From the NCBI GenBank assembly GCA_900617105.1, contig UYFQ01000259.1, positions 1-35,825 of the forward strand: 35,825 nt of DNA. Direction: 5' to 3'. Made by a program: the position numbers and the translations under genes. The notes under the pieces are model-generated. The model was not told the DNA's origin. It did no database searches and was given only the letters and a program-made list of their open reading frames with translations. The stretch's first letter is position 1, and the number at the start of each line of letters is the position of its first letter. This document shows positions 1 to 35,825 of this stretch, piece after piece. Source of the stretch: Hydrurus foetidus. Lineage: Eukaryota.

Positions 1-107
1 TTTTCATTACCTTTTTCAGCATTTTTCTTTCTCACGCTAGAGTCATATTTGTTTTGTTACACACTGTAGCTAGAGACTCGCCAAAAGAGAGAGAGAAATG
101 AGAAAAC

Positions 108-126
108 GAGAGATAAGTAGGGGTAG
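108..126 (+). other. Polypurine tract of a Gypsy-like element extending off the left edge
   Basis: Purine-rich GAGAGATAAGTAGGGGTAG directly precedes TGTGGC. It has the same GTAG|TGT junction as the Gypsy-1 PPT/3' LTR (AAGGAGGAAGGAGTAG|TGTAG). Confidence 0.6.
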
Positions 127-334
127 TGTGGCTCCCTCAGGGTCTGCTACCCCATTCAGCCGATTAGATGCTGTTTCCACCTTAGTACCTTCGTGTTCAC
201 AGCCACGACTATCAGTCACTAGCTAGTTTGTGCTGCTTTGCAGAAGTTACTAGCGTACCTCCTGTTTGCATCCCTAACTAACAAGCTCCTTTTAGCCTTT
301 AGACTTCCCTTCTTTCTAGCCCTCAAAGGTCACA
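127..334 (+). mobile_element. Probable 3' LTR (208 bp) of an LTR retrotransposon inserted into ORF1 of Harbinger H1
   Basis: TGTGGC...GGTCACA termini (TG...CA with imperfect terminal IR) resemble the Gypsy-2 LTR ends TGTGAC...GGCCACA. It is preceded by a PPT. The partner LTR and TSD are outside the window. Confidence 0.6.
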
Positions 335-335
335 C

Positions 336-518
336 TTGACCGTAAGTGAGAGAGAGGAAAGAGATCGTGAAGACGAAAAATACCTGGTACAAGAGCGTAT
401 CAGGAGAAACGTGGCGAACAACATTGCATGTGCGAAACATTACGGCACTACCAGTTCCACGATCTCAAAAGTGAAGACAAGAGGCGTAACAAGAAGTACA
501 ATTTCTAAGATGGTTTAA
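336..518 (+). pseudogene. C-terminal fragment of Harbinger H1 ORF1 (accessory protein)
   Basis: Ends tail-to-tail with the transposase, as ORF1 does in H2-H4. The basic C-terminus (KTRGVTRS) resembles the H3 and H4 ORF1 tails (TRTRGVSRKR, GRVTRGS). It is cut at the LTR boundary. Confidence 0.55.
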
Positions 519-554
519 TATGTTTTATTTACAATTCAATAATATTTTCTTATT

Positions 555-2100
555 TTACTCTTTCATTTTGCCTGTTCTTGAAGGCCATACTATATCTTTA
601 ACTGCCCACCTCCTATGAAAACTAGTTACTAATTTTTCTCTAAAATCTTTATTTCTCATTCTTAATATTTTGTAAGTCTTTTCTTCTCCACTATTTTTTA
701 AGTTTTTTATTTCTTCTTCTCGGTTGTCTAAAAGATTATTACATAAATCCTTGCCTCGGGCAAATTGTGAAGTATCAAGTTCTCTTATATCACATCCATC
801 TCTTACTCTACGAAATATAAGTGGGGCATAAATTTCAACATCACCTACGGCATGCCACCCTATTCACCTTCAAAAGAACTTGGTACACCTTTTTTCCACT
901 TCTTGTCTAATCCATCAACATTCAGTGACATGTTGCGTAGGGCACAGCAAGTAAACCAAATGTTATCAGCAGCTTCGATCCCATGAACTCTGATTCATGA
1001 TTTTAAAATTCTCCATCTCCCTATAAATATTATAATATATCATTATCTATTATCTTTTAATATCCCAAAGGTGCATTCGACATCTTTTCTCATAGATTCG
1101 GCCCATTTGGACCAACGCTGTTCTTTCTTCGACTGTGAATGTTTGAAGGGACATATAAGTGTGGGCCAATTTAAATATCCCCCATCCACAAGGATCCAGG
1201 CCCCAGTATAATTTTCATTTTTTCCCTCGCTATCTTTCAGTGTAAATTGATGATCATTCAAGTATGTACCATTCTGCATGTCAGTCACTAACCCATCAAA
1301 TCGCACTACAGTCATATCATTCCATCTTCCGGGGTATCCAACTGTTGACGCAATAATCTAGCGTCGATGATTGGCCACGATTTGGAATGCACGCGTCGTA
1401 TGAGAACTTTTCCCTCCTAAATTCTGATTCTTAAGCTTGTAGTGGCATCTCTCCAATATGATATGTGTAACATCCGCTGACCCAATACACCCATCAAAAC
1501 CAGCCTCAGCATATTCAGACATACAGTCTTCTATCTCCTCAGGAGTTTCCGGCCTCTTCACCCACTTGGGATAGAGATGTTTGCGGCATGCTACAACGAA
1601 TACTTTGAAGAATCGACGATGTACTTCTTCAGAGACGCTTGTAGCCTCGTAGAGGTCATCGAAAGTCCAGCTCCTTCCCAGGTAACGTAGTGCTCCCAAA
1701 ATCAATATTTCCAGTAAAATGCCCATCTCCCCAAGAGCGTTACGTCTTTCATAATCAGGAAACCACTTATCTTCTCTAGCCTCCCTCACTAGATCTAAGA
1801 ATGCAGTGTGAGGCATTCTAAATCTTCTTCTAAATAGATTCATATGCTTCTTATTTAGTGGTTGATCAGGGAATCTGACGTATCTGCGATACCAATCTGA
1901 CTCAAAGCAGTCATTAGGATTGTATCCATCGTTATTTCTGTTACGAAAGGGCATTTTCTTTGGTGGAACTGGTTCGGCAGCCTCGTTTTCTTCTAATAGC
2001 TCATCGCGCCTCTTCTTAAAGACGACATAACTTTCCAAATCTGGATACCTATCCTCACCAATGCAGTCCCGAAGTTTTGGTGACTTTTCCGTAGCTTCAA
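555..2100 (-). pseudogene. PIF/Harbinger DDE transposase (H1), disrupted
   Basis: Motifs FRRRFRM, GCIGSADVTHI, LVDGGY, RKDVECTFGILKG and C-terminal WPSRTG. In-frame TAG at 1358-1360. Intron remnant 1021-1053 has AT instead of a GT donor. Start codon not found. Confidence 0.9.
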
Positions 2101-2641
2101 CTTAGTTGTTAATGCTTAAATTGACGATTTCTTAAATTTAATGTGAATAATTCCTATTCTGTCACGCCATTTTGTCACGGAGAATCTGGAGCCAAATTTT
2201 GTCAAACAACTGCCTGGAGGATCACGAAAAACATAGTTTTTCAATTTGTATTCCGGATCCTCCACCATAACAAATAACGACCCGGAGGATTACGGTGTTT
2301 TTCTATTTCGTATTTCGTATTTCGTCCAACCGTATGGATTGACCTTAGGCCAAACCTTATAGCGCACCGATTACGGATTACGGATTTAAAAAAACTCGTG
2401 ATTCCGTATTCGTGATTGAGGTCGTTCCATGCGGTCGACGGATTACGGATGACTGATACATCTCGTCAATTCGTCATCCATCGCCTCTCAGACAATACGA
2501 TGCGACGGATGACGAATTGACGGATTGTAATGATCGGTTGTGTCACCTCCATTATGGTAGACCGTTTACCGATGACTTATTACCTATTATTACTCAAGCG
2601 TTGTACACATTTTTACAACCACACATAGTATATACAATCAT

Positions 2642-4720
2642 ATGACTATGAAGCGTTCAGATGTCCCAAGTAATCACTATCCCCCGAATTCGAAGATGAG
2701 CACGACATCTCACTCGCGAGAGGCTCCTGCTATAGTATCAGCTAAGAGGGCCAAATATATTCCGCCGCCATCTTTAACTGCCAAGCAGTTGAAAGCATTT
2801 CAATATCTTGTTGGTGGCGCAACTTACATATCTATTTTGGAAGGAGGAACGATGAACAAAGCTGGGCTCCGAGACAAATGCGCGAAAACGTTTCATGGCT
2901 ACGACGAAGACCATCTTGGAGTTGTTCATAATTTCTTGGAGGGCAATGGCCGATTTGAGGTCATCTCGGATAATGGAAGGATAGCCAGCGGTTATGGTCA
3001 ATTATCAGGCTTGCGAAGAGATAGCATAGACATGAGCATCCGGGATGCTACTCTCCGCGGAGATCACACTTTATCTGGGAGGCAAATAATGGAGAAAGCA
3101 AAAAGTGTCCTTTGTGAATCTAAGAAATATCTCGCGTACTGGATGGAGTTCATGATAAATGGATCAATGCCAAGCGGGATGAATGAAGACAATGCCCTCA
3201 AATACGTCATGAAAAGAGCCATGGAGGAAACGTCGTGTGAAATTGAGCCCGATCATGAATCCCCCCCCCGGTGAGTATGTAATAAACCTGCTCTCGTCCG
3301 AATTCTTGCAAATCATAAATGCATGTGATGATTTTGTCGGTCAATTTCTTTTCGAGATATGTCTATTATCTAAAAATCTGTTGATGTCTTAATAAAGTCT
3401 CTTGTTTACAGGACTAACGCTTGCATTTTTTCTTAAACCGTATTGACTGCTTAGGCGAAAGCGAGGATGACATATCAAAATCTCAGTCTCAGTCTCAGCT
3501 GCTCCAGCGAGATTACACGAACGACAGCCATCTATTTTTTTCTTTTTCTTCATACTCATTTCTAAAATTTAAGTATGTTGCCCCATCAGACATAAAATTT
3601 TGAGAACATCCAAGTAGTTTCAGGAAACAAAAACATGTGAAAGTGACAAATATTTAACTTTCAGAGCCGAAATGTGACCGCATCACTCCTGAAATCCGTA
3701 TTCTGTATTTCTGAAATAATTTGTACTTTATATTTTAAAATGCCACACAGGAACAACGAAGCAGCAAGAGGATCGTCTGAGTTCAATAGTACAAAGATAG
3801 AGATAGTCAAACAAGATCAACAATTTGTGATTGAGCAAAATATTGAAAACAAGGTATTCCGTAAGTATCAGGTAGCGAGGCAGATGTGAGAATCAGTTAC
3901 TTCTGCGAATGATAAGGAGATGTGGTTCAACAGAATGAATGCGTGGGCAGCAAAAATCGATGGGGATGATTATGATGACCTAACACTGGCAAAGCAACCT
4001 GAGACACCTACCATTGATCATCATAAATCAACCCCCAAAACGAATACAAAGGCATCAAGTTCTGTCACGCACAGTAGTGACAAAAATTAAAATTCAATTT
4101 GCACATCGACCTACTCTGAGCAAAAAGCGGAATCATCATTATCACATCAACAGCAAGCACTCTCTGCCAACTCAAATCAACAAAAGGGAGCAATCAAATC
4201 GAATCAACAAAAACAAGTATCCACCAACTCTCAACAACAAAAGGCATCATCAACGTCCCATCAACGACAGAAGGGGTCACGTGAAATCTCTGTCGTTAAA
4301 TAGAAAATGGTATTCACAGAAGTGGCGCCTAAATTTGTCACGCATAAGGAGGAAAGCTCTTCATCGGATTCTGAGTCTGACACGGAATCTTTTAAGGCAG
4401 AGGTTATTATTAGAGCTAAGAAATAAAGAGAGATTATGGAGATGTTCCGTGAGAAAATTAAGCCGGTTACAGTCGGTCGGGAGTGGATCGTTCAAGCTGT
4501 GAATAATGGCGATCAGACACCTGAAACTGTTTCTTTGCGTGACGCTATTTGATCGCACATTAAGAAATCCCAGGAGATAAGTGACACTATCATTTTACTA
4601 CCACCTGATGTTGCGACAACTTCACAACCAACAAATTCACAACCTTCAACTGTTACATCACTTATCAATTCCAAAGTTTCCCAAGAAACAACTCGTCGCG
4701 CAGATAAAACTAGAAAGTAA
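2642..4720 (+). pseudogene. Harbinger H2 ORF1 (accessory, putative DNA-binding protein), spliced and degraded
   Basis: 210-aa first exon ends at a GTGAGT donor near 3271 and contains GSMPSG (compare GQLPS and GLIPSG in H3 and H4). Downstream low-complexity coding fragments end at TAA 4718-4720. Internal exon structure is uncertain. Confidence 0.65.
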
Positions 4721-4750
4721 ATAAAAAAAGTTAATTTAATTAACACAAGT

Positions 4751-6319
4751 TTAAGCAGTCATTTCACCAGTCCTAGAAGGCCATACTATATCTTTTATTT
4801 CCCATCTTTTATGAAAATGTATCACTAGCTTATCACGAAATGTTTTGTTTGTTAATTTTATTACTTTATAATTGGCTATTTTTGGGAATTCAAGCTCTTC
4901 ATCTTTGATTTGACCATACATGAAATCGTTAAGTGGGATTCTGCTCGCATCAAATGATCTAATGTCGTCAGCTGCAAGATTATTCCTAACTCTACGAAAT
5001 ATTAATGGTGCATATGCTTCTACATCTCCTACTGCATGCCAACCTAATTCACCTTCAAAAGGACTAGGATTGCATTTCTTCCATCTTTTATCTAAGCCGT
5101 CTACATTCAGTAACATGTTATGAAGTGCACAACAAGTAAACCAAATATTGTCTGCAGCTTCTATGCCGTGTACTCGAATTCCTGTCTTGAGTATTCTCCA
5201 ACGCCCTAGATATTATGATTTAGTTATTGTACAATACTGTCATTTCTGTTGCATACAATTAAAAATATTTCAAATGTCTTACCTTTTAATATACCAAATG
5301 TGCATTCCACATCTTTCCTCATTGACTCCGCCCAACGGGACCATCTTTGTTCTTTCACTGAGTCAGATTCTTTGAATGGACATATGAGAGTGGACCAATT
5401 CAAATAACCTCCATCGACTAATACCCATGCACCACTATATTCCTCATCAGTATCGTTTTGAGTTTTAAGAGTGAACTTATTATCCTTCAAGTAGAGACCG
5501 ACTGAATATCAGTTACAAAACCGTCAAAACGAACGATTGTTTGGTCGTTTCATCTACCTGGATAGCTCACCGTGGAGGCAATGATTTGCCTCCTATGATT
5601 CACAACAATCTCAAAGGCCCTTGTCGTGTGTGACGACTTACACCCTAGATGCTGGTTTCGCAAACGGGCGTAACATTTCTCCAGAATGACGTGGGTGACA
5701 TCGGCTGAGCCTATACAACCATTGAACCCCGCCTCCTTGAATTCGGACATGCAATCCTCAACTTCCTCCGGCGTCTCAGGACGCTTAACCCACTTTGGAT
5801 AAAGGTGCTCCCTGCAAGCTATAGTAAAGTCTCGGAAGAAACGCCGATGACACTCTTCAGAGACATTCGTTGATTCAGAGATGTCATCGAACGTCCAACC
5901 CCTTCCCAGGCAACGCAACGCACCGAGGATCAGAATATCCAAGCATATACCTGGCTGACCGATTGCGTTGTGTCCTCCATACTGAGGGAACCAGTTCCCA
6001 TCTCTGGCCTCTTTCACTAAATCACAGAAAGACTCATGCTCCATGCGGAAGCGGCGACGGAACAGCTTGAAGTGCTTACGATTCTGGTGGAGTAGTGGCT
6101 CCTTGATGTAACGCTTGTACCATATAGACTCTAAAGAGTCTTGAGGGTCATACCCATGAGTACTTCTCTCCAAGTAGGGCCTTTTTTTGTGACATCCTCG
6201 GGGAGTGCCTCATCCTCATCGAGTTTCTCATCACGCTGGTTTACATACTGCACGTATTTGACTGGATCAAAGTTGCCAGCGTCGTCATAACAGTCCTTGA
6301 GGGAAGTGCGGTTGGCCAT
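4751..6319 (-). pseudogene. PIF/Harbinger DDE transposase (H2)
   Basis: Clearly homologous to H1 (GCIGSADVTHV, LVDGGY, RKDVECTFGILKG|RWRILK). GT-AG intron 5206-5282. TGA in place of Trp at 5550-5552. Frameshifts near 6175 and 5500. Confidence 0.92.
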
Positions 6320-6767
6320 GGCTTGAAGTGGTGTGTGTGTTAAGATTTCTATACTTGAATAGAAATGTGACTGCTATCCGTCAACGAATTTGTCACGGCG
6401 GATTTTTTGCATTTTTTTGTCTTGTAGGGGTCTGACGGATCGTTCAAAATATAAAAAGTTAATCCGTATTCGGTAATCCGTCACCGTATTGGCGGAGACG
6501 GTAATGGATTGCAGTAATCCGTCAATCCGTCAATCCGTCGACCGTATGGAACGACCTGAGGCCACTCCTTATCGCGCACCTGAAATACGAGTTTTAATGA
6601 ATCTCGTGTCTCCTTATCGCGCAAGAAATACGAAGATGAAACTCGATAACGCCATATACGAATATCTGGCGCAGGATAACTGGTCCATTCTCGTCTCGAT
6701 CTAGTGACGAGTTCCCTCAAGACGAGTTAGATCACAGTGCTATCTGAGGCAATTAAATTTGACAATT

Positions 6768-8153
6768 ATGGCCTATCAAGTCCAAGACATTAAGAGTTTC
6801 CAATATGTCTGCATCGCCAGGGCAGGTCTTGCTGTTTGCCAAGAACTTGAAATGTGCAAGGAGGAAATTGAGCGAGAAATATTCCAAGAATTCAAATTGG
6901 CATGTGCGGCATCTTGTTTATCACCTGCGTTAGAGGGAATTGACAGAGCTGTCCTACTGAGGTCGAAGAACTTTGTTGTAAAAGTCTATAAACCTGACGA
7001 CTACCACGATGGGGAATCAATCTGGAGAAAATTCGGCGAGATAGAGGGGATTATAGTTAATGACTTCACGTAGCTTTATGTGAAAAATCTTCCCGGTGGA
7101 CAACTACCATCAAGGAAATCTAAGGCAGAGATCATAGAAAAGACGAGAAAGGACGTCTTCCTGAGAGCTAAGAAGAAAAAGAATCCTGAGTCGTCCAAAA
7201 TCTGCCCAGCTAATTGGGCTCCCACGGAGTGGAACACATTCCTTATCTTTGGTGCTGCTACAGATCAACCGGAAAGTGTTTTCTACGCCACGTGAGTCTA
7301 CTGCAAAATAGTCAGAACCCTACGTCATCTTCTGACCAGTCTTATGTACAACGATAGGAAATCAAACGGCCCTGGCGTGACAGCGGGTGATACAACAGTG
7401 AAGAAAGCGAAGAGTAGGAAAGATCAACGCCAAGATCAGCGAATTAAAGAGGACGAAGTAAGAAAAGTCGGTGCAAGAGAACAGCCGACGAATGTAAAGA
7501 AAGATCGCAAAGTTCTACGAGAACTGAACACTGAGCTTAAAGTCAGCAACTTCTTGGATGCCCGTGAAAAAAGATTTGCTGAGCTTAAATACCTCCTGGA
7601 TATCGAAGACGACGAAGAAGAAAAACTCGTCATCAAATCAGAGATCAAAGCACTAATTCGGAATCCTCCGCCAGTTGAGATCGTAGTTGATAACTCAGAT
7701 GATGAAGTCCTTGTTATTTCAAAGGTTCCAGCTTCGGCGACATGCAGTGAGATACCACCCACCCGCGACACTCTCATGAGTACACCACAACAAACCTAGC
7801 TCTGGGGGGATGAAGCACCATCTGAATTTGGCGACACTGAAGAGATCGCAAACCAATCCGGAGAGGGCTTCACTTTCCATGACTACCGTAATCACGACAA
7901 ATGCGACGATGATCAGCATAAACAATCAGATAGTGATACAGAACGGTCCATCTCCACAACTGCATCTCCTCCTCTCGAAGTACCAACTCACCTATCACCG
8001 AGAAGACAGGCTAAAAGAGCAATTGAACCCACTGCTTCGTCATCATTTGTCACTGCATCCTCATCACCACCCACTCCACCTGGTGAAGACTTATTTACTG
8101 AGATGACTCGTACGAGAGGAGTTTCGAGGAAAAGAAAGTTGAACAAAAAATGA
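6768..8153 (+). pseudogene. Harbinger H3 ORF1 (accessory protein)
   Basis: Homologous to H4 ORF1 (F-x3-IARAG, GxSxWRK, GxxPSxKSK, W-x-PTEW-xx-FL-x-(F/Y)GAA). Phase-2 intron 7292-7357. Premature stops at 7071 and 7797. Confidence 0.75.
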
Positions 8154-8162
8154 TAAAGATAA

Positions 8163-9561
8163 TTAAGTTAAGCATTCAATTTGTCGGGCAACATACTGCC
8201 TATTATAATGTTCGACCAGTTTTTTCCGTTGCACGAAGTGTGAATCCTGAACCTCTTCTCCCCCATCATGAAGCATTTGATAGCGTTGATTCACTGCATT
8301 TATTCCGATTAAGCTATAATCAGTTGATCCTACTAAAGCTTGAGCTCTTCTCCAGTGCTTCTTGAATATTGTTATATCTTCTTCAGCATGATGCCCTACT
8401 TGTCCTTCCCAATTAACCTTCTCCTCCCATCGCGCATCATAGCCATCAACGTTCAGCAGTATATTATGCAGGATGCAACAGGTGAAGAACATGTTGTCGA
8501 TCACTGATTTTGATTGATAGAATGTGGGAAGTTTCAGGCATCTAAATCTACCCTTAAGTATACCAAAGCAACACTCCACATCCTTGCGAACCGACTCAAT
8601 CCACTTACTCCATAAGGCTTCCTTAATTTTGGACGTGTGTTTCATGGGGCACTGTAAACACCTCCACTTATGGTAGCCACCATCCACAATAAGGTAGAGT
8701 CCTGTCTGTAATCTAGGAACACCTTCTTCATCGAGAAGTTCGAAAGTTTCATTTTGATAAAGTTTTCTGTCATGAATGGAGGTAACGTATCCATCAAACT
8801 TCACAATAGTCTTATCGTTCCTTGCCCCCGGATGGCCTTGTGTAACACCAATGATTTTCTTGCTGTGATCAACTGTTACTTCATATGATAAAGTGGGATA
8901 TCCCTCTTTCCCCTTGTGAAGTGATCGACCTCCCGCTGGACAACGTTCCCATCTGATATGCACGCAGTCAGTGCTCCCGATGCATCCAGGAAGACCCATC
9001 CTAGCATAAACTCCCGTTGTGTGCTTGATTTCTTCCACAGTTGTTGGTGGAGCGCAGTTGATGCTGAAGTACTTTGCTGCGAAGAAGGCGCAGAACTTGT
9101 GAAAGAACTGTCTCAACACCTCCGCACTGATGAAGCATAGCTCCTCAATCCCGTCAAAGCAGTATCCTCGTCCAAGGACACGCAACACGCTTAAAATTTT
9201 CAGTTCCAATGGTGCTGCAAAAGTTTCCATAGCATCTCGCCCCTCAGTAAACCAGTCATTCTCTCGTGTCATCCTAAGAATTTCCACGTAAACTGGAAAT
9301 GGCACTCTAAATCGTCTTCTGAATAGTTGTCCTCCTTTCCTGTCTTCTGAAACGTGGATGAGCTAGCATCATTCCCCAGGTTGAAAATTCATATTTAGGT
9401 CTTTGCTCGAATTTCCTTCGCTTAAATTCTTTCCTTCTCTTGACCTCGACAATGAAAGGAACTACTATATCACTCATTTCAACAACAAGATCAGCTCGAC
9501 GCTTCATCAGCATGGAGTGTCTGTGAATGATAGCCCGGAGAATCACTTTCTTGAAGTGCAT
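8163..9561 (-). CDS. PIF/Harbinger DDE transposase (H3), nearly intact
   Basis: 380-aa ORF with GCIGSTDCVHI, IVDGGY and RKDVECCFGILKGRF. The N-terminal 84-aa piece joins through a frameshift or small deletion near 9340. No intron. Confidence 0.93.
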
Positions 9562-9828
9562 CTTGATGGACTTTCACTGTTTGAACTGTGACGAAATGCG
9601 ACTGATGATTAATTAGGAGGATGTTGACTACGCTGTATCCAGTTTTTGAAAAGCGTTTTGTCTTCAACATGGTAAGGAGTTACCCAACGAGAAATAAACT
9701 CGCTCTCGTGAACATACCGCGACAAGGAGTAAGATCCCAGGAAAAAAAACGAGTTTAAGATTACGAGAAAATAGAAACTCGTTCTCGTGAAACCTCACGC
9801 GATAAGGAGTGGCCTGACCCCGTGCAGA

Positions 9829-9915
9829 CCCTTATAAGGATCACTGAAACGAAATCCTCAAATCTGTATTTGAAAATTTGTTTTGGTATTTTGTAGCCCT
9901 TATAAGGATCACTGA
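9829..9915 (+). repeat. Subterminal direct repeat CCCTTATAAGGATCACTGA x2 in H4
   Basis: 19-bp identical copies near 9829 and 9897, each with the palindrome CCTTATAAGG, which echoes the TIR core CCTTATA. Confidence 0.85.
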
Positions 9916-10030
9916 TACAATTTATTGAATTAGTTGTTTCTTCAAGTTTTTGAAAGGATTGATTTTAAATCACTCCTCAACACAATTTAATCTTCGAGAA
10001 CTACGTTTAAAGTAAACCTAATCAGACAAA

Positions 10031-11452
10031 ATGATGAACGAATATGCTAACTCGGAGGCGGTCGTGTACGGAGTTAGGCAAGCGGAAAATGAATCTGCCA
10101 AACGTCGCAAAATGCTAGCTGTAAATCCTTACGATGGTGAGGAAGTGGATGATAGCAAGGAGAATTTTCCGTATTCGAAAGTTAGAGGACCGTCGTATGT
10201 GCGAGTATTCAACCTGGGGGAGGATGCTACGTAATCCTAGAACCCGTGATCCTGGTGATAGAAAAGGTGGAGTTCTATTTAGACTTCGCTTCCGGGTTCC
10301 TTTTCTCTATTCGAAAGAATAGCTGCACTTACACGGGAGAAAAATTGATTTACGGAGAGAGGAGATTCCTCTGGTAGACGAGGCGCTCCGTTAGAGCTCA
10401 AAATTCTTGGAGTTTTGGGTGTTCTGGGTAGAGGCTATTGCTTTGATGGGATTGAGGAACTATCTTTCATCAGTGCTGAATGCAACAGGACGTTCTTTCA
10501 CTCATTTTGCTCTCTATTTTCAAAGAAATATTTTGAGGTTTATTGCAACCCACCTGTGGCTGATGCTGAGATTTCCCGGACTTTAAGTGTCTACGATAGA
10601 CTGGGTTTCCCTGGATGTATTGGCAGTACAGATTGTGTTCATATTAGATGGGAAAGGTGTCCTGTCGGAGATCGTTTTTTACACAAAGGGAAGGAGGGTT
10701 ACCCAACAATAGCCTACGAAGTAGCAGTTGATTATACCTCAAAAATTATTGCTGCTACGAAAGGTTTTCCTGGAGCAAAAAATGACAAAACAATTGTTCG
10801 TTTTGATGGATTTGTTTCAGCTATTCATGACGGTGATCTTTATGCCAATGTGAGATACAAAATGTGTAAAGAAAATGCAGAAGAATACCTGGAGAAGGGA
10901 TGTTATCTACTTGTTGACGGAGGATATCATTAGTGGCGCTGCCTTGAGTGTCCTTTGAGACACTCAGCTATCAAAAAAGGATCACTGTGGAGTGAATGGG
11001 CTGAGTCAGTGCGGAAAGATGTTGAGTGTACATTTGGTTCATTAAAAGGTAGATCTCGTTGTCTGAAAATGCCTATTTTTTATAACACAAGAGATGGAGT
11101 AGATAATATGTTCTTCACTTGCTGTATCTTTCATAATTTATTGCTTACTTTTGATGGTCTGGATGCACGTTGGGAAAAAGATATTAATTATGCTGGTATA
11201 GATGGTGAACATGCTGCAGAAGATATGTTTATTTTTCGTCAGCATTTGAGTAGAGTCAAAAATTTATCACCCGTTACTGATTATAGTTTCATAGGAGTTG
11301 ACCGTTTCAGAGATAGATTTGAAATTTCGCATGGAGAAGAAGTTGAAGAATATGAAACTTCTTATAATGAATTAAATAAAAAATTGGTAGATCACTTTGC
11401 CTTCAAACATTCAATCAATGACGTGCATTGGTTAAAGAAGAAATGTGTTTAA
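10031..11452 (+). pseudogene. PIF/Harbinger DDE transposase (H4)
   Basis: YSTWGRML, FRLRFRVPF, GCIGSTDCVHI, LVDGGYH, RKDVECTFG. Several stops and frameshifts (e.g. TAG 10931). Close to the H3 transposase. Confidence 0.9.
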
Positions 11453-11701
11453 AATCAACTTTTTGTAAATATTGTAATCATAAAATCCGTTAACCGATCA
11501 CTGAATCTTGATTACAGATTTTTTTTTTCTAAATTTAACTCCTACGTCGATTATAAGCTAGTTTATCATTTCGAAAATATTTATTTATATCATGTGACAT
11601 ACAATTGTAATTTAAAAAACATTACTTAATATGATATCAACTTATTTCTTCCCCTTTCTGCCCTTTTTTGGCACCGAGAAATAGTCCATGTTATCAGCGG
11701 C

Positions 11702-13320
11702 CTATGATCTTTTTGGGGCAGAGCCTCTTGTCACCCTTCCTGAATTGACAAGTTGAGATGAATAGGAACTGGACGACTGAGATGAATTGGAACTGCACGA
11801 AACGTTTCTGGAAACGAAAGGTCGGGTGATAGGAATTTGACGTTGACGGCGTTCGAAAATTTCATATGCTGTTTCAGTAGTGTCTTGTGTTGGCTCAGAA
11901 GGAGTAAATACATCATTTCTTGAATTGGATGAGTCGGTAATAATGGTTCCATAAACCTTCTCCTTCTCAATGATCTCCTTGTAATCTTCGTCATCTTCGT
12001 CATCTTCTTCAGGTCTCCTCTCTGCTTCTCCATCTTCATCATCTCTGTTCCCCCCATTGTCATTCTCATCTATGGTATCTCCAAAATCATCGTCATCTCT
12101 GTCCTCCTCATCTCTCGCATTTGCATCGTCGTCCGTGTCCGCGTCTGTGTTGAATTTCTCCAATGTTATATGAGAGGTAAGGGACTGGGTAGTGGTATCA
12201 TTCGGATTGCTCTCCTCCACATCACTGAGGACTACGGCAATTGGAACTTCATTCTCCGCTTCGGGTTCAGTTGCCTTCATCTTCTGATAGTTTTGAATGC
12301 CAGGCCCACCATTAATTAAGTACAGCATGTACTCCTTCTGAGAGTCAGCTCGTTGTTGATACGGCAAGAATTCAAGGTTCAGCAACTTCTCCAATTCAAG
12401 GATTCTCTGCGAAAGAATATAAGAATGCAATGAATTAAAGTGAGATATAGTTGTGTTCTATTATTTAATTTACCTGTTGTCTCAACTTCATCTCCACCAT
12501 TGCCTTGTTGATAGCCAAGTTGTTGGCACTGACTTTAGATTCTTGATCCATGTGTTGATCATGTTTGGAGGGTTTCTTCAGCTCGACATTATTCCTTAGC
12601 GTCTCTTCTTTTCTCTATAGATGTCTCTGAGCCTTTCGGCACTGAGACTTTGTTGGTTGGTTCTGGGAGGAGGAGGATATAGACGATGGACCAGAAGACT
12701 TCCTGATAAAATACAGTCATGATTAGCAACGTATCATAGGATTAAATTAACCAGGCTTCAACTTACTCAATGTGAAAAGCTTCATCAGGCTTCTCTGAAG
12801 CTGCTCCATACATTAGAAACACTTCCCACTCGGTAGGATACCAGTCAGGTGAAAATTCTTTCACCACATAACCTCTTGGATTCTTAGAGCGATTTATTGA
12901 AGCATCCTGTTCTGACTTGAACAAAAGCTCCCTAGTCTTTTACAAAATGTCTTCCTTGGATTTCCCCGATGGTATCAGACCATCCTTCCCAAGACATTTA
13001 AAATAGAAGGGAGTGATGGTGTTGGTAACATACTTCTTAATGTCTGCATACTTTCTCCACAGGCTGATGCCAGTGTGCTCATCATCCACTTCGACACTAT
13101 GATTCATGAATTTGCAGGTTCGGAGGTATTTATCTTTGGACAGAAGGCGTATAGAGGACGGCTGGATGAAGGAGGATACATGACTATGCATTTGCGTCAT
13201 CATTTTGTCTTGGATTTGCCCGAGCGACATTTCATATGATGGAATCGACATGCCCGCTCGGGCAATCAACAAGAACTGTTTGGATCTGACGACCTGCAAC
13301 TGGCGCTTTGTTGTCGCCAT
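11702..13320 (-). pseudogene. Harbinger H4 ORF1 (accessory protein with acidic C-terminal tract)
   Basis: Homologous to H3 ORF1. GT-AG introns 12703-12766 (same position and phase as the H3 intron) and 12407-12473. Premature stop at 12940. Confidence 0.75.
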
Positions 13321-13942
13321 TGAGATATTGGTGTCTAAATGTGATTTGAATGTAATCTACTAGGCCATCCTAGGTCAAGATATCGTCATCCAAAACGAGA
13401 ATTGGATTACGAAGAAGTGCCCCAAATCCCGTCTCGAATTCTCAAAATCGGTCAATACAAATTTTAAAATACGATTCCGAGGCGCTATATGGGTCTGTAA
13501 GGGCGACAAATCACCGATTTTCAATTAAAAATCCGTGATCCGTGGCGCTATAAGGTTTGGCCTTATTGGTCCTTAGACTGTTCCTTACGTTATGAGATCT
13601 GGGTTCTATACCCAAAATCTTTCCACTGTCTTAATTCGTACGTTTGCGTAAGTACAGTTGACCCAAGGTCCTTACATACATCACTGAGTATGTACACCGA
13701 CAAACGCGCACGTACCCGACCTCTTATGTAAGTCACAAAACAAGCAATTAGACTTGCACCGTACTTACGCGTATGTGTGCACCACCGAGGATGACCTGGT
13801 CACTCATCCAACAAGTTTTGTTATCTTACATTGGGTTCGCTCTTGTGAGCACGGAGAAAGTATCTCCTTCTTCTAGAAGGTTCTCCATGCGGATTGTTAT
13901 GACTCCTTCCCCCAACACACCCCGAAGGACTGATAGCAATAC

Positions 13943-15113
13943 TCACACTGCACCGAAGGGCAGCCAGCTTCTCACATCGTCCGTACTGGGTTGGGTACCC
14001 CCGACTAGAGAGTTCGATGACCCATGACCTCCCGCAGAGTAATCATGAACGGCCCTCATGACCTTGGACCCTTCGACGTAGTTCCCTCTATCTATCATGT
14101 CCATAGCTCTCATCTGCGTTGTCGCTGCTTTCCGAAGAGAATGCGACGAAAAATTGTCAGCCGGTAGCCCGGCTTCGCTACACACTCCCTTTACTGCCTC
14201 TCTCACCATCCTACCTTGAAGCCTTTTTCTGTCTACTACCCCAGACTGTCGCTCTAGATACCGACAGAACGACTCATCTGATGGTAAGACCTTTGAGAAA
14301 GCCATGAACGTTACCAGGTCGTCCAAAAACTGACTCTCTTCTGCTGATTGCCTGCCCACGGTCTTGGCCTTTACAAGTGCTCCCGTTTTCTGTGACGCAG
14401 TAAGTACTCGAAATCCCAGTACGTGTGAGGCTGATTCTCTACCCTCCCTAAGATCTCTGGTAAAGATGCCCCGCCACCCACCTGGTGGCTCCCTGTAGCC
14501 CCTTCGACCCCGAATACCAAATCGCTGCACCTTATGCAGTGATCTTCCGCTCCCACCTCATGGGGGGTGTACTCGGATATCCTAGCATCCATGTCGTAAC
14601 CCCACATGCACTCGATATAAGTCATCTTGCTATCAATATCCTCTCACCCCCACCCCCTGCCCGCCCAGAGCTTGACCCTTATGTCCTTGAGTAAGCTCTC
14701 GCATAAGGGCAGCTTCACATCACCTCTAGGTCCCTCATCTTTTTTCGCGCGCAATTCTTTGGTGCTCATGCGAAATGCCGTCCGCGCTGCTGCTACTATC
14801 GGTGAGTCGAAGAACGCAGATGACTGAAGCGCCATCAAGAACTTCTGTCGGATCCCTGCCGTCACGGAGGTGACCTGCTTTCCCCGCAGACCCTCGTCGT
14901 AGTGTAGTTGAAGAAAGAGGCCAACTATGGCAGGTTTGTCTTCCTCCAACCATTCCCTTGGCAGCGGATTTTCTGTGCCGAGATCCTGATACAGGAACCT
15001 GCACCACTTAAGCCAGTGCCCTTCGTACGCCTTCACTGTCGCCGCGGTGACCGACTGCGCCACGAACGATCCCACTCCTGCCCTGCTCAGCTCAGGTAGC
15101 TGGCGCGGAAGTC
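13943..15113 (-). CDS. Tyrosine recombinase of the DIRS/Ngaro-class element (frameshifted)
   Basis: N-terminal AATVKAYEGHW helix. Catalytic pattern DARISEY (R), SQKTG (K), SHSLRK (HxxR), RGNY, HDY (Y). Spread over three ORF-track frames. Confidence 0.88.
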
Positions 15114-15272
15114 CTAAAATAGAATAAAGATAAGGGATTCCGGCAGGTGAAGGTACCAGAGCGATGCAGATGGATATAGGGCAATGGCCTCAACTATCTT
15201 CTGCCAGAATGATATAAAGTTCACTTCATTCTCAAATGGTTCGCTTGGGCGACAGCATTCTATAAACTGCAG
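15114..15272 (-). CDS. C-terminus of the YR-element RT/RNase H ORF beyond the Gypsy-1 insertion
   Basis: Removing Gypsy-1 and one GCAG restores the frame: ...EENSQVL-QFIECCRPSEPFENEVNFISFWQKIV...ILF* (TAG 15114-15116). Confidence 0.8.
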   Translation of the reverse strand: MQFIECCRPSEPFENEVNFISFWQKIVEAIALYPSASLWYLHLPESLIFILF

Positions 15273-15546
15273 TATAGTCGCGGCCGGATTCGAGTACGAA
15301 GAAACCGGGTAAAGACGGTATGCTGGAGTAAACTGTTAGGTTAGTTACAGTTTGTGAAAGAAGAGAGCAAACAGCTAACGACAGACACAAACGATAGGCT
15401 ACAAGGGTGCTGATGCTGATGAGCGTCCGTTACCGGTGGACAAGTGATGTGGATGAAAATAGACTATGGGTACGTGAATTATATACATACGTGAATTATA
15501 TACAAACGTGTACGAAGCGTACGGTGAACGTACGTGCTAGGCTACA
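15273..15546 (-). repeat. Gypsy-1 3' LTR
   Basis: Direct repeat of 21182-21455 with 2 substitutions, one in the terminal dinucleotide (TA instead of TG on the + strand). Contains the tandem 17-mer TACGTGAATTATATACA x2. Confidence 0.97.
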
Positions 15547-15562
15547 CTACTCCTTCCTCCTT
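15547..15562 (-). other. Gypsy-1 polypurine tract
   Basis: Minus-strand AAGGAGGAAGGAGTAG abuts the 3' LTR. Confidence 0.9.
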
Positions 15563-15878
15563 AAAATTTAAGTTAAGTGAAAGAAAATGAATGTGAGTGA
15601 AAATACATGTGGTAACGTATAGCTCATTTGAAAAAGGTGCCACTTCAAATTATTCAGGGATCCCATACGCCTATCTATCGTCAAAGATTTGGTAGTATGT
15701 GTGGATATGAAAATCAAAATGTTGTCGACACGATTTTCATCGGCGGCACTCCTTAGAGTCGGGGTATAATATCTAAACAATTATGTCAGACTCTTACTGA
15801 CTAAAAACTCCCAAAAAGAATGTTGACCGACAACAAACAAAAAATAGGGTTGAAATCCATCATGGATATTGTTTAGTA

Positions 15879-18800
15879 TTATATATTTGTATCTACAACG
15901 TTTGTAAACTTTCTAGGTATTAAACGTTGAAGATTGTTAGATGTCAAGTATTCGTGTAATTTTTCGGTATCACGAAGATTGGCATAGGATGTCCATGAAT
16001 TGTGTTCATCGGCATAACCTAACCATTTGACAAGGAATTCTAACGAAGTTTTGCGTTGTAAGTCACCACGATGTTCAAGGATATTTTCAATGTAAAATTC
16101 CATATAATCATGACGAGCAACGTCTAATGGTTCAACACGTAGTGGATCAAAAAGAAAAGGTTTCATATCTGAAACATGATATTCTTTTTCGACATGAGAG
16201 ATAAGATCATAAAGGGTAAACCTTGAGTTTGATCCGGAAATAACTCTCATAGGACCACGCCAGAACGTATGAAGACGTGTAGGCGGGTGACCTGTACGGT
16301 AATGTACCAATACATACGTTCCGGGTTGGTAATCCGTATGTTGTAATTGTTTTTTATGTGTCATATGAAGTAAGTCAGTGCGAAGAAGTTCTTTAGCAGC
16401 TGCTTTTCTAAGACTATCTTGTGTCTTGAGAAGGTTACTCATATAGACTGACATAGATTTCTTTGAAGGAGGAACTTCGTCAATTGGACGGAACATACCA
16501 CGATCAAGATTAACACAGTTACCAAACAGTAATTGTGCAGAAGATATCTTTAAACGATCACTATGATTTGAATTAATTATTCTCATAACGAAAGGTAAAG
16601 CTAATTTGTAATCTTCTAATGAAGTGTTGTCGTATGTGAGTGATCGGATGTGACGGTTAATCTCTTTGTTCATACGTTCAACAATAGCATTTTCCTCCTT
16701 AGAGTAAGCTAATGTTAAACAGTGTCGAGTACCAACAAACGATAAAAACTCACGTATTACGTCAGCAATAAAGTGGGGACCGTTATCTGATCTTAACTGA
16801 TGAGGTGCTCCGAAACGACCAAAATGTTGTATTAAACATTGGGCGGCGGATAGTGCAGTTGAATCAGTAGTATGATACAATTCAGTCCAACGAGTGAATG
16901 TATCAATGATAACGAGGATATGTCCTCCATCAGGAAATGGACCGACAAAGTCGATGTTTAAACATTCCATAGGGTAATACGACGAAGTCGTAAAAGGATG
17001 AGCATGAATAGGTATTTTAATCATACTCATCTTTTGACATTGTGGGCAAAAGTCAATGAAATATCTAACATGATTTTCCATGAATTCCCACTTATGTTGA
17101 TTTGCTTTTAATCGTTTCATAGTTCTGGCTAGTCCAAAATGACCAACCATAGAATTGTGAACTGATGATATAGCATTGTATTGCATATCGGTGAGTTGAA
17201 TTTTCGGGATAATAGCTGCTGCAAGAATCATATCTGCAGAGTATTCCTTAGGTGAGTCGATCATATTGTTACGACATAGTCGAGACATAGAGTCGGCGAT
17301 ATCATTATCAACACCTTTAATAAATTCAATTTTATATGTATACTCAGAGAGTGCTACATACCACCGAACAATCATTGGATTAGAATTGTTATATATGTAT
17401 AACAGATTTCTATGATCCGTTCGAATTGTAAATAATCTATCACGTAAAAGTGATTGTAGAAAAATACAAGAATAGTAAATTGCATAAGCTTCTTTTGAAT
17501 AGTGGACCAACGGAGTTGAGACCCAGAAAGAGATTTGCTTACAAATGCAACCGGATAGTCCTTTCCATCAATAGTTTGGAAGAGGTAACCACCGATACCA
17601 TAATCAGATGCATCAGTGTGCAAAGTGATTGGTGCAGTATCACTAATGAAATGAATGGTAGTACATTTCGATACTTGTTCCTTTATTTCATTAAAAGCAG
17701 AAGTTGCTTCTGATGTCCATACTATCCGTTTTGTTCTTTGATAATTTGTAAGTAACGCGTGTAACGGTCTTACTATCGTAGACTGATTTCTGATGAAATC
17801 ACGGAAATAGTTTACTAATCCAAGAAAACTTTTAAGTTGTTTGGATACAGTAGGACAAGGAAAATCCAAAACTAATTGGATTTTACTCTGGGACATTCTA
17901 AGTCCCTCTTGTGATATAACCTTACCAACAAATTTTAAATCGGCATAGCCAAGGTAACATTTGGATGGTTTAAGGATCATTTTATGGAGACGAACGCGAG
18001 AAAAGAATTCTCGCAGTCGTGCAACAAAGTTGTCAGGACTGTTTCCAAAAATGTTAACGTCATCGATATAAATTTCTAAAATTCTATAAAGTAACGTATT
18101 TAACACTTCAGTAGCAATCATCTCTTGAAAATAAGAAGGTGCTTGCTTTAGACCAAAAGGTAGTCTAGTAAACTGATAGACACCACTATATAATATAAAC
18201 GAAGTATATTTTTTAGTAGCGAGTGTTAATGCGGCTTGATGGTATGCTTGAGCAAAATCCACCGTGCCAAAGATCGTCGGTTTCTGAGAACCGATTCTCT
18301 GTAACATTTCCGTTATGTTCGGTACGGGCCAAGAGGCATGTTCCGTACATTCGTTCAAGTTACGGTAATCTATAACGAATCTTTTAGATCCGTCAGCCTT
18401 AGTTACTAAAAATCCTTGGCTATAATAAGCCGCAGTGGATTTCTCAATAATACCCTGCTCAATGAGGATATTTAATTGTCTAGTAATCTCCTTCTGATTG
18501 GCTGCTGATTGAGGTCTAGGTGGTTGTCTATTTTTAGAGACACGCCACTTAGGGTCCTGAACAACCAGATCAAAAGGAGGAATAGAAGCAGGCTGAGATG
18601 AAAGTGTATTTGAAAAGATATCTCTGTATTCAATACAGAGTAGTCTAATCAACTCCTGAAGTTCAGGAGTACCCGATATGTTAATCAGGGATACTGGGTC
18701 AACCGGTTCCGGATTGGTATCCGGTAACCAAGGTGAAAAGGTACTAGCCTCATGTTCACCGATTTCATCATCATCTGGCATAGCCAGTTGAGATGTATTC

Positions 18801-21080
18801 TCGGATTGAATGACGAGAGAAGCTAGTAGACCTGATACAATAACCCTTTGGGGTGTTACTGAGGTCGCTGCCCTGTGCACTATATTAGTCGATGCTAATT
18901 GACTAGGCAACTCGAGGAATATTTGTGATTCCCGAATTGTCACTCGTCCGATCACAACATCGACTGAAGACTTGTTTAAAATAATTGCTTTGAAATTTAA
19001 AAAGTATTTTTATTTAAACGTTCAGAAAAGTAAGTCATTTTCAAATTTATAGACTTAGAAATGTTATAACATTTTCCATCCAAGGCTGAACAAACAGTCA
19101 GTGTCTTGTCGAAAATAATAAATTCTTCTAAATGAAAATTCTTAATTACACGCATGGCAACAAAATTGCCGGCGAGCGATCCCGTATCGATCAGCACTTG
19201 GACTTCATTTCTTGGCTGGCTGGGCTGTGACACATAGGTGACAGTAGCAGTTAGAAAGTCAGCTGACGAAAGGTTCGTAAGAGCTCCCAATATGGAAGAA
19301 GGAATAACAACATCAGTGAAACTAATAGTTGATGATAACTTACTTGTCTTCTTTAAGCTCTTTTGCTTAGTGACCGGCTTAGACGGACCCTCCGGTACAG
19401 CCGAGGCTGACGCGGTAGCAGTAGAAGAAGAGGAAGAAGAGGAGGTGGTAGGCACGTACGCTCCTCTTGCAACCAATGCATCAGGGTAATCCTTTTTCAG
19501 TTTCTTAAATGCATTGCTATCAGCATATGCACTGTCAGAAGAATTGAAGTAGGGTGATGCAGTAAATCTACACACAGAGATAGTGTGATTAGATCTTCCA
19601 CAACCAACACAGACCTGTACGGTGCGAGTGGTTGAGGGATTCGAAGACTTTGCAGTCTTCGCGGACTTAGCACGTGGTTTGATGGTGTCCTCATCAGGCT
19701 CAGCAGCGCGTTTGGAGATAGGCTTATCTTTAGAACGCGTAGCTGGGCCTGGAGTAACCTCATAACCAGCAGCCCGAAGCTCGTTAGCTGAGTTTCTGAG
19801 AGTAGTCAGTTGCGTCCACCAAACGAATCGAAAATCTTTCAAATCGTTGATTGGAACAGTCTCACCGTTCACCTTGCGGCGTAAGATGAGCTGCCAATTG
19901 ACGGGGTGGGTAGGCAACTGACGCTCTAGAATCTTAACAGCCTTAAGCTGTTCCTCAGCAGTAGTGCTGGGAAATTTGCTACCAATGCACCAAGGGCAGT
20001 ATCGTTACAGGAGTCAGTCTCAATGTTGTTCAAATCAAATCTGAAATTGAACGATGAGACTTGCTCGAGGAACGATGCCTGACCCAAAGGTGTATCGATG
20101 GACTCATCAGGTACTGCCTTGAGGAGTTCTTTGCAGAATCTCTCGGTAGTCCATGACTTCCACTCTTCGCACTCGTCGCGAATTGCTCTCTCAGTGCAAT
20201 ACTGCCTTTGCAGGAGTGTTACAAGAGATTGCTCGACGTCTAATGGTACCACGTCAAGAAACGTATAGGGGCAACCATTCTTGCGAAGGTCGTTGGTGAT
20301 GCTTAAAACTTCCAGATGAGTTGGAACCTTGCTGAGCTTTCTAACCTTTTCATGAGGTAGTAGATAGCGAGCAGCAAGGTTTGAAACAACAACATCGTCA
20401 GTAACACCACCAACGGTAGCAAAAGTTGCAACACTCTGAACATTTCTGTTCATGACATTGCTGTCTGAAGTGAGCAACAGGGAATCGGTTTGCACCGGGT
20501 TTGCAGGCAAAACTGCGGCAGATAACACAGACAGCACAGGCAAAGCAGGCAAAACATCACGCACAATGACAGGTGCAGGCGTGATGTTGGTGGCGGCGAT
20601 GGCGGTGATGGCGGTGGTGTCGGCGGTGGCGGCTATCATCGTGGATGATGATGGTGATGGTGCTGGCGGCGAAGGCGCCGGCTCCAAAGATACTCCATCC
20701 ACTCGCTGGGGAAGTTGTTGATGTTCAACAGAGACTTCCCCCGCTTGGGATATCGCTAGATCCGCTGTAATAGCTCCAGATGGAGCGGAAGATGGCTGCA
20801 AAAAATTTTGCAAGGGGTTTCCCCCTCCCACGCCGGGGGCCAAATTCGAGAAGGGGTTAGAGGCGATAGATAGATGTGCTGCGACGTCAGTCGCAGCAAA
20901 AGATGGATCTGGAAGCGAGGGAGGATTCGCCGAGTCGGAATCTCCCGTTGTGCTAGCGTCCATGGTGTCGGCGACGATCTCGACGACGGCGTCGGTTGAT
21001 GGCGCTTCCTGGGAAATCGACAGGGGAGCCGTCGAAACGGCCGATACCCTGGAAAGTCTTCGTCGGTTGCTGGAAACCAT
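15879..21080 (-). CDS. Gypsy-1 gag-pol polyprotein (Gag, CCHC knuckle, protease, RT, RNase H, integrase, chromodomain)
   Basis: CVGCGRSNHTISVC; LIDTGS; YIDD; TDASDYG; HHCC (H..GH..CPQC); DD35E core (NIDF, RSDNG, VER); chromodomain (FLVKWLGY...NSW). Three frame breaks, each fixed by adding one base to a homopolymer. Confidence 0.95.
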
Positions 21081-21181
21081 ACTGGTGATCAGTGCCAGAT
21101 GGTCGTCGGATGTCGGCGGTTGGAAAATCTATCTAGCTCTCCAGTAACGAGAGTTCGTCTAACAACTCTCAATATTAATAT

Positions 21182-21455
21182 TGTAGTCGCGGCCGGATTC
21201 GAGTACGAAGAATCCGGGTAAAGACGGTATGCTGGAGTAAACTGTTAGGTTAGTTACAGTTTGTGAAAGAAGAGAGCAAACAGCTAACGACAGACACAAA
21301 CGATAGGCTACAAGGGTGCTGATGCTGATGAGCGTCCGTTACCGGTGGACAAGTGATGTGGATGAAAATAGACTATGGGTACGTGAATTATATACATACG
21401 TGAATTATATACAAACGTGTACGAAGCGTACGGTGAACGTACGTGCTAGGCTACA
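21182..21455 (-). repeat. Gypsy-1 5' LTR
   Basis: TGTAG...CTACA termini. U5 hairpin CCGGATTC-N9-GAATCCGG. Confidence 0.97.
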
Positions 21456-23429: not shown

Positions 23430-23440
23430 TTAGGCGGGCA

Positions 23441-35722: not shown

Positions 35723-35825
35723 CCGGTAAAACAAAAAATAAAAATTGATTAACTAAATCATAAAGATTCCTCCTAAATTTGATCCTCAGGGATTTTAGGG
35801 AGGTTTATTCAGTAAGGAACTTAGT

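Follow-up and report, generated by a model that had tools for sequence, protein, structure and literature searches.

In Drosophila, dimers of transposable elements arise by double insertion at one site, which leaves two complete elements with a single copy of the TSD between them (McGurk and Barbash 2018; PMC5932611). In maize and rice, Tourist MITEs lie adjacent to or nested within one another, more than 10% of the rice MITEs are found in multimers, and some are targeted by many families (Jiang and Wessler 2001, as summarised in PMC5172404 and PMC3278479). In bacteria, IS30 inserts beside its own IRs (PMC9333248).

The locus considered here comes from the Hydrurus foetidus assembly GCA_900617105.1 (contig UYFQ01000259.1, positions 1..35,825, forward strand), and the whole of this stretch of 35,825 nucleotides is referred to as the window. 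It is composed of mobile elements throughout and holds a nest in which eight or more elements of PIF/Harbinger type, belonging to several families, can be distinguished. As in the dimers reported by McGurk and Barbash, two complete elements are found around a single TSD. However, the dimers of that account each belong to one family (P-element, R1) and are flush, whereas here the partners belong to unlike families, and TIRs or subterminal DNA hold half of the sites. With the Tourist multimers, as described in the papers cited above, the nest shares adjacent and nested insertions that are mobilised by PIF/Harbinger, although those multimers consist of short, non-coding plant MITEs, in contrast to the full-length two-gene elements of 3–4 kb and the precise, recurring offsets seen here. 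The likeness to IR targeting by IS30 and IS911 (PMC9333248) lies in the insertion next to a resident end and in the end-to-end junctions. Those bacterial elements are described as moving by copy-out-paste-in, with the same element as partner, a strict IRL-IRR orientation and a 2-bp spacer, whereas in the nest the movement is cut-and-paste, full TSDs are present on both sides and the insertions cross families.

The PIF/Harbinger and NuwaII groups of the PHIS elements, as set out in PMC4482050, resemble the present elements in having a DDE transposase together with a second ORF, a 3-bp TSD, a length of about 3–4 kb and short, G-initial TIRs (GG in NuwaII, where the TSD is TNA). Unlike PIF/Harbinger proper, the TSD here is TNA and not TWA, and unlike NuwaII the C-TNA-G flanks are absent from most sites. 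Double insertion, Tourist multimers and IR targeting are already known. What appears to be new is a multi-family, end-focused Harbinger nest, no other case of which was found in the literature searched, mostly open-access papers.

Architecture of the nest

Six insertions, representing only four independent sites, can be traced. Each of the six falls 72 nt or less from the end of another element and three of them are exactly flush, the offsets from the resident end being 0, 9–12 (TIR positions 10–12) and 70 nt. The features are as follows.

555..2344, minus strand: H1, Harbinger-type; left end outside the window, right TIR ending at 2344
555–2101, minus strand: broken H1 transposase (Plant_tran, DDE_Tnp_4); D,D,E retained, aligned part interrupted by 5 stops
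2345..2347: TTA common to the right end of H1 and the left end of H4; flush junction 1
2348..13562, plus strand: H4, 3817 nt without H2 and H3
2348–2365 and 13545–13562: perfect 18-bp TIR pair of H4
10031–11452, plus strand: H4 transposase, 2 stops in the aligned part
about 11700–13320, minus strand: H4 ORF2
2417..2419: TGA, left target copy in H4; a nested site with no end-to-end junction
2420..6556, minus strand: H2, 4137 nt; 25-bp TIR with 24 matches; transposase (minus) frameshifted, second ORF on plus
6557..6559: TGA common to the right end of H2 and the left end of H3; flush junction 2
6560..9814, minus strand: H3, 3255 nt; perfect 17-bp TIR
8163–9362: H3 transposase frame with DD35E; H3 ORF2 from about 6768 (plus strand)
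9815..9817: TGA, right target copy in H4
13563..13572, plus strand: TTA after H4, then 7 nt equal to positions 3–9 of the left TIR of X, whose first two letters are missing
13573..13575: TTA at positions 10–12 of the X TIR; target for F and the MITE
13576..25755: F, probably a single element; TIR of 14 bp (12 matching), flanked left and right by TTA
within F: a DIRS-like retroelement, and a gypsy element with LTRs at 15275–15546 and 21184–21455
25756..25758: TTA common to the right end of F and the left end of the MITE; flush junction 3
25759..26995: MITE, a 259-nt hairpin with its right TIR split by G
26009..26983, plus strand: G, an H3-related deletion derivative of 975 nt; target is positions 10–12 of the right TIR of the MITE
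26006–26008 and 26984–26986: TAA copies of the G target
26996..27055, plus strand: TTA and the continuation of the left terminus of X

A first-pass annotation had placed the trinucleotides correctly (TTA at 2345 and 25756; TGA at 2417, 6557 and 9815), and the three flush end-to-end junctions between different elements that it named, H1-TTA-H4 at 2345, H2-TGA-H3 at 6557 and F-TTA-MITE at 25756, are borne out. The TGAs at 2417 and 9815, which it listed alongside, do not join element ends. They are the borders of H2 plus H3 within H4, where the two elements are nested 70 nt from the end with nt 70–72 of H4 as the target, and their excision in silico restores the subterminal symmetry of H4. The arrangement is therefore a nest with several offsets rather than the self-extending, head-to-tail train that had been proposed. 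The H4 subterminal sequence was considered as a hidden inner TIR and rejected, having no partner.

Three further contacts are absent from that annotation: G inserted at TAA in the right TIR of the MITE (26006/26984), F plus the MITE inserted at TTA in the left TIR of X (13573/25756/26996), and a near-flush H4-TTA-X junction at 13563. F plus the MITE and G thus each sit in the TTA at positions 10–12 of another element's TIR, and the two target sites are nearly identical in sequence. The continuation of X aligns with the right end of H3 at a score of 70, against a shuffle maximum of 37. A TIR-like end is present at 27210, some 215 nt into X; should it mark an insertion, it would be a seventh case and lie beyond 72 nt.

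A 3-bp TSD flanks all six elements for which both ends are available, TTA or TAA for H4, F, the MITE and G, and TGA for H2 and H3. The TWA-type duplication expected earlier thus gives way to TNA, with TGA, which falls outside TWA, occurring three times. The termini are G-initial in 13 of 13 cases and carry CC at positions 8–9 in 12 of 13, and the TIRs are 14–25 bp long except in G (8 bp under a two-mismatch rule). The signature of double insertion is seen as three TGAs around H2-H3 and three TTAs around F-MITE; the outer border of H1 is outside the window.

It is very improbable that the nest is an assembly artefact, made by collapsing repeats or by linking them through short words in common. 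Matching TSDs, as much as 12 kb from each other, flank every nested element, and the host structure is restored when the insertions are taken out. Moreover, an independent contig of public run X19 covers 2371–2456 with 0 differences at a depth of 115.8, which excludes an artefact at the 2417 junction, and a contig of run X1 covers 2290–2374 with 5 differences, missing the bridging rule at 2345 by one letter. On the side of an artefact, the 6557 junction is bridged by none of the contigs listed. H4-like copies without H2 and H3 and with a single TGA also occur in public contigs, for example as a joint from 2402 to 9825 at a depth of 4347 in run X20.

Chance, motifs and the target sequence

With insertions placed on TNA sites at random, two flush junctions arose in 1 of 4000 simulations and three in none of the 4000 (binomial about 1.5e-6). 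The same null gives about 1e-9 for five of six insertions within 12 nt of an end and about 8e-9 for six of six within 72 nt, both cut-offs having been picked post hoc with the data already seen. The concentration at ends is accordingly far above chance, which upholds that part of the earlier claim of precise insertion beside an existing end, but the offsets of 9–12 and 70 nt show that insertion is not confined to the end itself.

A quite possible explanation, though on balance not the expected one, is that target sequence alone is reused: ends and TIR positions 7–15 would resemble a target preference of 9–15 bp and, together with double insertion, would yield the nest with no protein tether. 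An extended preference of this kind, 9 bp in plants and 15 bp in vertebrates, is reported for PIF/Harbinger (PMC2836001), NuwaII is reported to prefer C-TNA-G and has TIRs that start with GG (PMC4482050), and double insertion places one TSD in the junction (PMC5932611). In the nest, CC directly precedes TTA in three of the four pre-insertion sites, and the sites inside TIRs are nearly alike. Right halves starting with TCG or TTG recur, in locus L015 and in an interior site of runs X1 and X20, where the sequence next to a right end of H4 type matches the interior of H4 ORF2 near 12244.

Five short-motif models, each run at two weights for 1500 runs, bear on this explanation. With CC-TNA-GG, at least three flush junctions arise in 32–71% of runs. 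In none of the five models, however, do six of six insertions ever fall within 72 nt, and the share of runs with five of six within 12 nt never exceeds 1.9%, the figure that CC-TNA-GG itself reaches. Short motifs including CC-TNA-GG therefore yield the flush junctions and not the whole insertion pattern, while a longer true motif would lie outside the models. In the window, 209 of the 234 CC-TNA half-sites are more than 72 nt from any end, and neither strand of the TGA site in H4 offers such a half-site. The first-pass annotation had offered CC-TNA-GG, as one of two possibilities, for a regenerated preferred target, but the full palindrome arises only once the second element has landed and, in the case of H2-H3, serves as target in neither order of insertion. 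When the four sites are reconstructed as they stood at first use, from the current sequence, the TNA has C and G flanks together in no case and the C in three. Site 2345 would match C-TNA-G had X once begun with GG.

The public contigs give a divided picture of how far flush junctions recur. Beyond the H1 end (runs X19, X1 and X2), all four loose-end rows listed (8 contigs) and one joint row are TIR-like, and they fall into three other types. Their scores are matched by 0, 1.95%, 0.28%, 0.06% and 0% of 3230 background 12-mers starting with GG, in a listing that covers 18 of 55 rows and is biased to flanks starting like the window; flanks of contigs leaving at 2345 or 2348 lie outside the row data. 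Thus H1 does meet other TIR types in other samples, but at the left end of H4 the flanks in all four rows listed (12 contigs, agreement 0.56–0.67) are not TIR-like. The consensuses listed for these flanks carry G or A rather than C before the TSD, which tells against a pure sequence preference, if weakly, as the consensus is mixed. They also resemble subterminal words, a resemblance that is not used as evidence because the consensuses are mixed. An opposite-strand joint 2365/2419 in runs X1 and X2 may be either H2 end to H4 end or H2-H3 and, being ambiguous, was left uncounted.

Short words in the termini are common to different families. TCCTTAT is found in 8 of 15 termini, which hold 12 of its 13 copies in the window, and GGATTAC in 7 of 15, which hold 8 of 11. 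A-rich words are also frequent there, and it might be supposed that the termini are no more than accessible or flexible DNA, rich in A-tracts and poor in nucleosomes, within a repeat island where insertions survive, a regional bias that would not be specific to Harbinger proteins. The variable offsets, the want of a single motif and the mobile-element make-up of the window agree with this. It is nevertheless unlikely: five of the six insertions cluster more tightly than a regional effect suggests, survival by itself would not disfavour element interiors, and the retroelements, in small numbers, have not landed at these ends, the gypsy element lying within the DIRS-like element, which itself begins about 260 nt into F.

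Proteins and a possible route of recruitment

Frames of H1, H3 and H4 match Plant_tran and DDE_Tnp_4 above cut-off. D132, D227 and E263 are invariant among 32 sequences, D227 and E263 being separated by 35 residues, and the triad is present in H1–H4. No solved relative of the transposase was found at E<0.4. The second ORF is conserved (H3 against H4, E 2e-14; 49 matches) and is predicted with confidence to form a helical domain (pLDDT 93.5). It showed no homolog among longer proteins, no Myb-type Pfam match in 27 members and no Foldseek match at E<=0.001. In structural comparison VIA gave the best Z (5.0), and the Sap1 DNA-binding domain gave Z 4.4 (rmsd 3.9, 90 aligned), within noise.

The clustering at ends likely reflects an insertion bias to element ends, a stronger and cross-family form of the known double insertion. 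As to its cause, it is tentatively proposed, at a little less than an even chance, that element-encoded proteins bound to resident ends draw in incoming elements, which then cut a nearby TNA. In Harbinger, an ORF1/Myb protein is reported to bind both the TIRs and the transposase (PMC2836001). By extension, ORF2 may bind the shared terminal words carried by a resident of a different family and, from that end, may recruit the incoming transpososome. The CC-TNA half-site, which all element ends and also TIR positions 8–12 provide, would be favoured in the final choice, and the bias would be partial rather than obligatory.

As each insertion adds two new ends, nests would grow at their termini. 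The safe harbour suggested in the first-pass annotation is speculative, and insertion at TIR positions 10–12 would destroy the resident's end. Counting against protein recruitment, the transposases of nested partners are only about 37–68% identical, so that binding across families is required, and F belongs to the nest although no Harbinger transposase was found in it; its ORF has three close relatives only, with no Pfam match in the two scanned.

The nest bears on how the two-protein Harbinger transpososome chooses its target. Because its insertions fall at three defined offsets from a resident end, it allows a direct test, in a natural setting, of what the second protein contributes to target capture. 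Were the insertions guided by protein, they would provide a mechanism for Tourist multimers, a form of inter-family competition through TIR destruction and a short docking site with which integration could be directed. With sequence alone as the guide, the nest is a clear multi-family case of the known double insertion.

Distant relatives

A broader reading, which is rather doubtful, is that a Harbinger lineage directs its insertions to termini of other Harbinger families through a shared code of end-binding proteins, and that this extends to relatives with a transposase identity of 41–45%. Each insertion would supply two new landing pads and frequently cost the resident a TIR, so that mutual end parasitism and self-growing nests would follow. 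Such homing, if true, would be a eukaryotic, cross-family counterpart of inverted-repeat targeting by IS30. Against a strict form of it stand the H4-left flanks listed and the H4-type end that is followed by ORF2-like interior.

Searches for further cases gave little. A metagenome scan with the H3/H4 TIR pattern returned 9 matches, which are all due to chance and resemble the window in nothing but the pattern, and viral contigs held neither a transposase relative nor a flush-junction match. Among genome contigs a single-protein query found none and an alignment query found 6 short contigs in four MAGs. Three junction-pattern matches in these MAGs, confined to two places of a single MAG, have the look of chance matches in bacterial DNA, and four one-mismatch matches have no element context.

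Among the distant relatives, whose transposases are 41–45% identical, two of three TNA-flanked, TIR-like ends appear similar to the arrangement in the nest, which favours recruitment to resident ends. The 7-nt flank at L013 is not TIR-like. The end at L015 is followed by TTA and TCG and then by subterminal-like A-rich repeats, and this flank gave no alignment above shuffles with the 11 termini compared. The end at L011 lies about 170 nt upstream of the start of another transposase, and one of the TIR types found beyond the H1 end is closely like an end in this locus.

Anatomy of the nest

The window has a GC content of 43.6% and contains four Harbinger-type transposase genes within 555-11452, all four of which encode the D, D, E triad with a 35-residue spacing. 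The transposases are only ~37-68% identical to one another in their best segments, and the elements that carry them, H1 to H4, therefore represent separate families. The nesting order was derived from pairs of terminal inverted repeats (TIRs) together with the 3-bp target duplications.

Elements of the nest
2344: right end of H1, then TTA
2348-13562: H4, then TTA, seven letters and TTA
2420-6556: H2, within H4 at H4 nucleotides 70-72
6560-9814: H3, within H4 at H4 nucleotides 70-72
13576-25755: element F, TTA either side
13830-23900: retroelement inside F with weak Phage_integrase and RVT_1 matches, which, with its motifs, we take to be DIRS-like
25759-26995: MITE, then TTA and more terminal sequence
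26009-26983: G, an H3-related deletion derivative within the right TIR of the MITE, TAA on both sides

TGA is present three times at the H2/H3 block in H4, on either side of it and between the two elements. Once F and the MITE are removed, the seven letters rejoin the sequence after 26998 to form a further terminus, X, which lacks its first two letters and aligns with the right end of H3 at a score of 70 (shuffle maximum 37). Judged from its 14-bp TIR (12 matches) and the TTA on both sides, F is probably a single element; its subterminal regions are dissimilar, no Harbinger transposase was found in it, and it may belong to another class of element with TIRs like those of Harbingers. It also holds an unassigned broken open reading frame (24327-24960) with just three close relatives, at 88-94% identity. 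The DIRS-like element is interrupted by a chromodomain gypsy element whose LTRs differ at just 1 of 272 positions, making this insertion recent.

Insertion sites and the choice of target

The first-pass annotation had described a train of families joined at their ends. Its three flush junctions, at which two element ends share one trinucleotide, are real, but the whole forms a nest whose insertion sites fall into three classes, and this nest is a real and unusually clean feature.

Kinds of insertion site
2345, 6557 and 25756: flush with an end
13573 (in X) and 26006 (in the MITE): at TIR positions 10-12
2417: 70 nt inside an end

When both strands of the window were scanned with a TIR profile, the sole additional terminus was one unpaired candidate at 27210. 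Under a null model of sequential random insertion at TNA sites, 0.4% of insertions are expected to be flush, 1.2% within 12 nt of an end and 4.5% within 72 nt, against observed values of 3/6, 5/6 and 6/6 (binomial ~1.5e-6, ~1e-9 and ~8e-9); the 12- and 72-nt cut-offs were set after the fact, and the six insertions represent just four independent sites. It is likely that the insertions are end-biased at all. Regional accessibility would suit a window made up of mobile elements, but beside this clustering at ends it seems an unlikely explanation.

The suggestion that CC-TNA-GG is regenerated as a preferred target is not supported, since the full palindrome appears only after the second landing. 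CC precedes TTA at three of four reconstructed first-use sites; the right halves differ from site to site, and neither half is present at the TGA site in H4. Simulations of 1500 runs covered five short-motif models. With CC-TNA-GG, three flush junctions arose in 32-71% of runs and 5/6 within 12 nt in no more than 1.9%, whilst 6/6 within 72 nt occurred in 0 of 1500 runs under any of the five. Most half-sites in the window (209 of 234) are not near an end, and words common to the termini of different families are rare in the rest of the window. Because the short-motif models fail, half-sites are mostly off ends and the termini share words, we tentatively, and by a narrow margin, favour a reading in which proteins bound at resident termini would recruit the incoming element, after which a nearby TNA would be chosen as the insertion point. 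The earlier observation is partly confirmed and extended, and its interpretation partly supported.

A longer sequence preference combined with double insertion is nearly as probable. PIF/Harbinger elements show a target preference of 9-15 bp, precise excision and a TIR-binding ORF1 (PMC2836001), C|TNA|G is the favoured target of NuwaII elements (PMC4482050), and double insertion of the P-element and R1 leaves one target duplication between elements (PMC5932611). Tourist MITEs are described as adjacent or nested multimers (PMC5172404, PMC3278479) and IS30 as using its own inverted repeats as target (PMC9333248). Among the papers listed in a literature search that covered the main texts of largely open-access articles, none describes full-length Harbingers of several families nested at one another's ends.

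Junctions in other samples and distant relatives

Runs containing window sequence comprise biofilm, sediment and freshwater metagenomes and one coded organism, which would suggest a microbial eukaryote of fresh water as the host. Contigs of four runs were compared with 1-14000 and of three runs with 2290-2456, and the figures are those among the matches listed. A contig of run X19 crosses the H4/H2 junction at 2417 with 0 differences (depth 115.8), and H4-like contigs of high depth have a single TGA at this site among the matches listed, which confirms the nesting of H2/H3 in H4. For 2345, a contig of run X1 covers 2290-2374, one letter under the bridging rule. Among the matches listed, H1-end flanks form four loose-end rows (8 contigs, three runs) and one joint row, and read TTA, GG and then TIR-like letters of three types, none of them H4. 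Scored with a profile from the window TIRs alone, these partner flanks fall within the best 0-2% of 3230 12-mers that start with GG, and one type is similar to an end identified separately in L011, a relative discussed below. This view favours flanks that start like the window, with 18 of 55 rows listed and several contigs leaving at 2345 or 2348 with their flanks outside the view, and so it shows that H1-end junctions recur, not how often. Flanks at the left of H4 are mixed and not TIR-like (four rows, 12 contigs, among the matches listed), and in X1 and run X20 the sequence beyond an H4-type right end matches ORF2, the second gene of such elements, near 12244; both count against strict homing on ends.

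A further X20 contig joins the two terminal regions of H2 (2485/6532, depth 565), which suggests a short non-autonomous derivative. In X19, an H4-like family (2359-2419, depth 4205) has a different 47 letters before 2359 and hence represents a related family with another or longer left end.

Transposases 41-45% identical to those of the window occur on six short contigs (L010-L015) inside four bacterial MAGs, presumably as mis-binned eukaryotic DNA from likely contamination. Three of the six have a TNA-flanked TIR-like end. That of L015 is flanked by TTA then TCG, like TIR positions 10-15, with A-rich repeats next, and its flank gave no alignment above shuffles with 11 termini. The L011 end lies ~170 nt upstream of the start of another transposase, a placement similar to that of H2/H3 within H4, and the 7-nt flank of L013 is not TIR-like. 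As support for end targeting these three ends are hints only. Next to its transposase, L010 also has a hairpin element of 280 nt (540-819) that is near-perfect, with 90% self-complementarity.

The ORF2 protein and neighbouring elements

Members of the ORF2 family (alignment A2)
12943-13320, minus strand
6768-7070, plus strand

ORF2 has a conserved helical domain with the motif G-x-x-L-W-R-K and a confidently predicted fold (pLDDT 93.5), and is a presumed DNA binder. Pfam and structure searches gave no assignment to Myb/SANT or another family, and ORF2 may be a form of the Harbinger accessory protein that has yet to be described.

At the left of the window, 1-334 is a very high-depth repeat (summed depth ~500,000-620,000 over 1-467, three runs) whose last letters, TCACA at 334, coincide with a cluster of loose ends; it is probably a retroelement end inserted in the second open reading frame of H1. 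At 27207-28950, TAA precedes the TIR-like end at 27210 (profile score 14.5), which has 11 letters in common with the H1 partner type of runs X19 and X2 and for which no partner end was found. The frames that follow have no Pfam match and contain motifs that we take to be those of a Crypton-like tyrosine recombinase. A second chromodomain gypsy element occupies 28815-35825, with a long gag-like open reading frame rich in CAA repeats.
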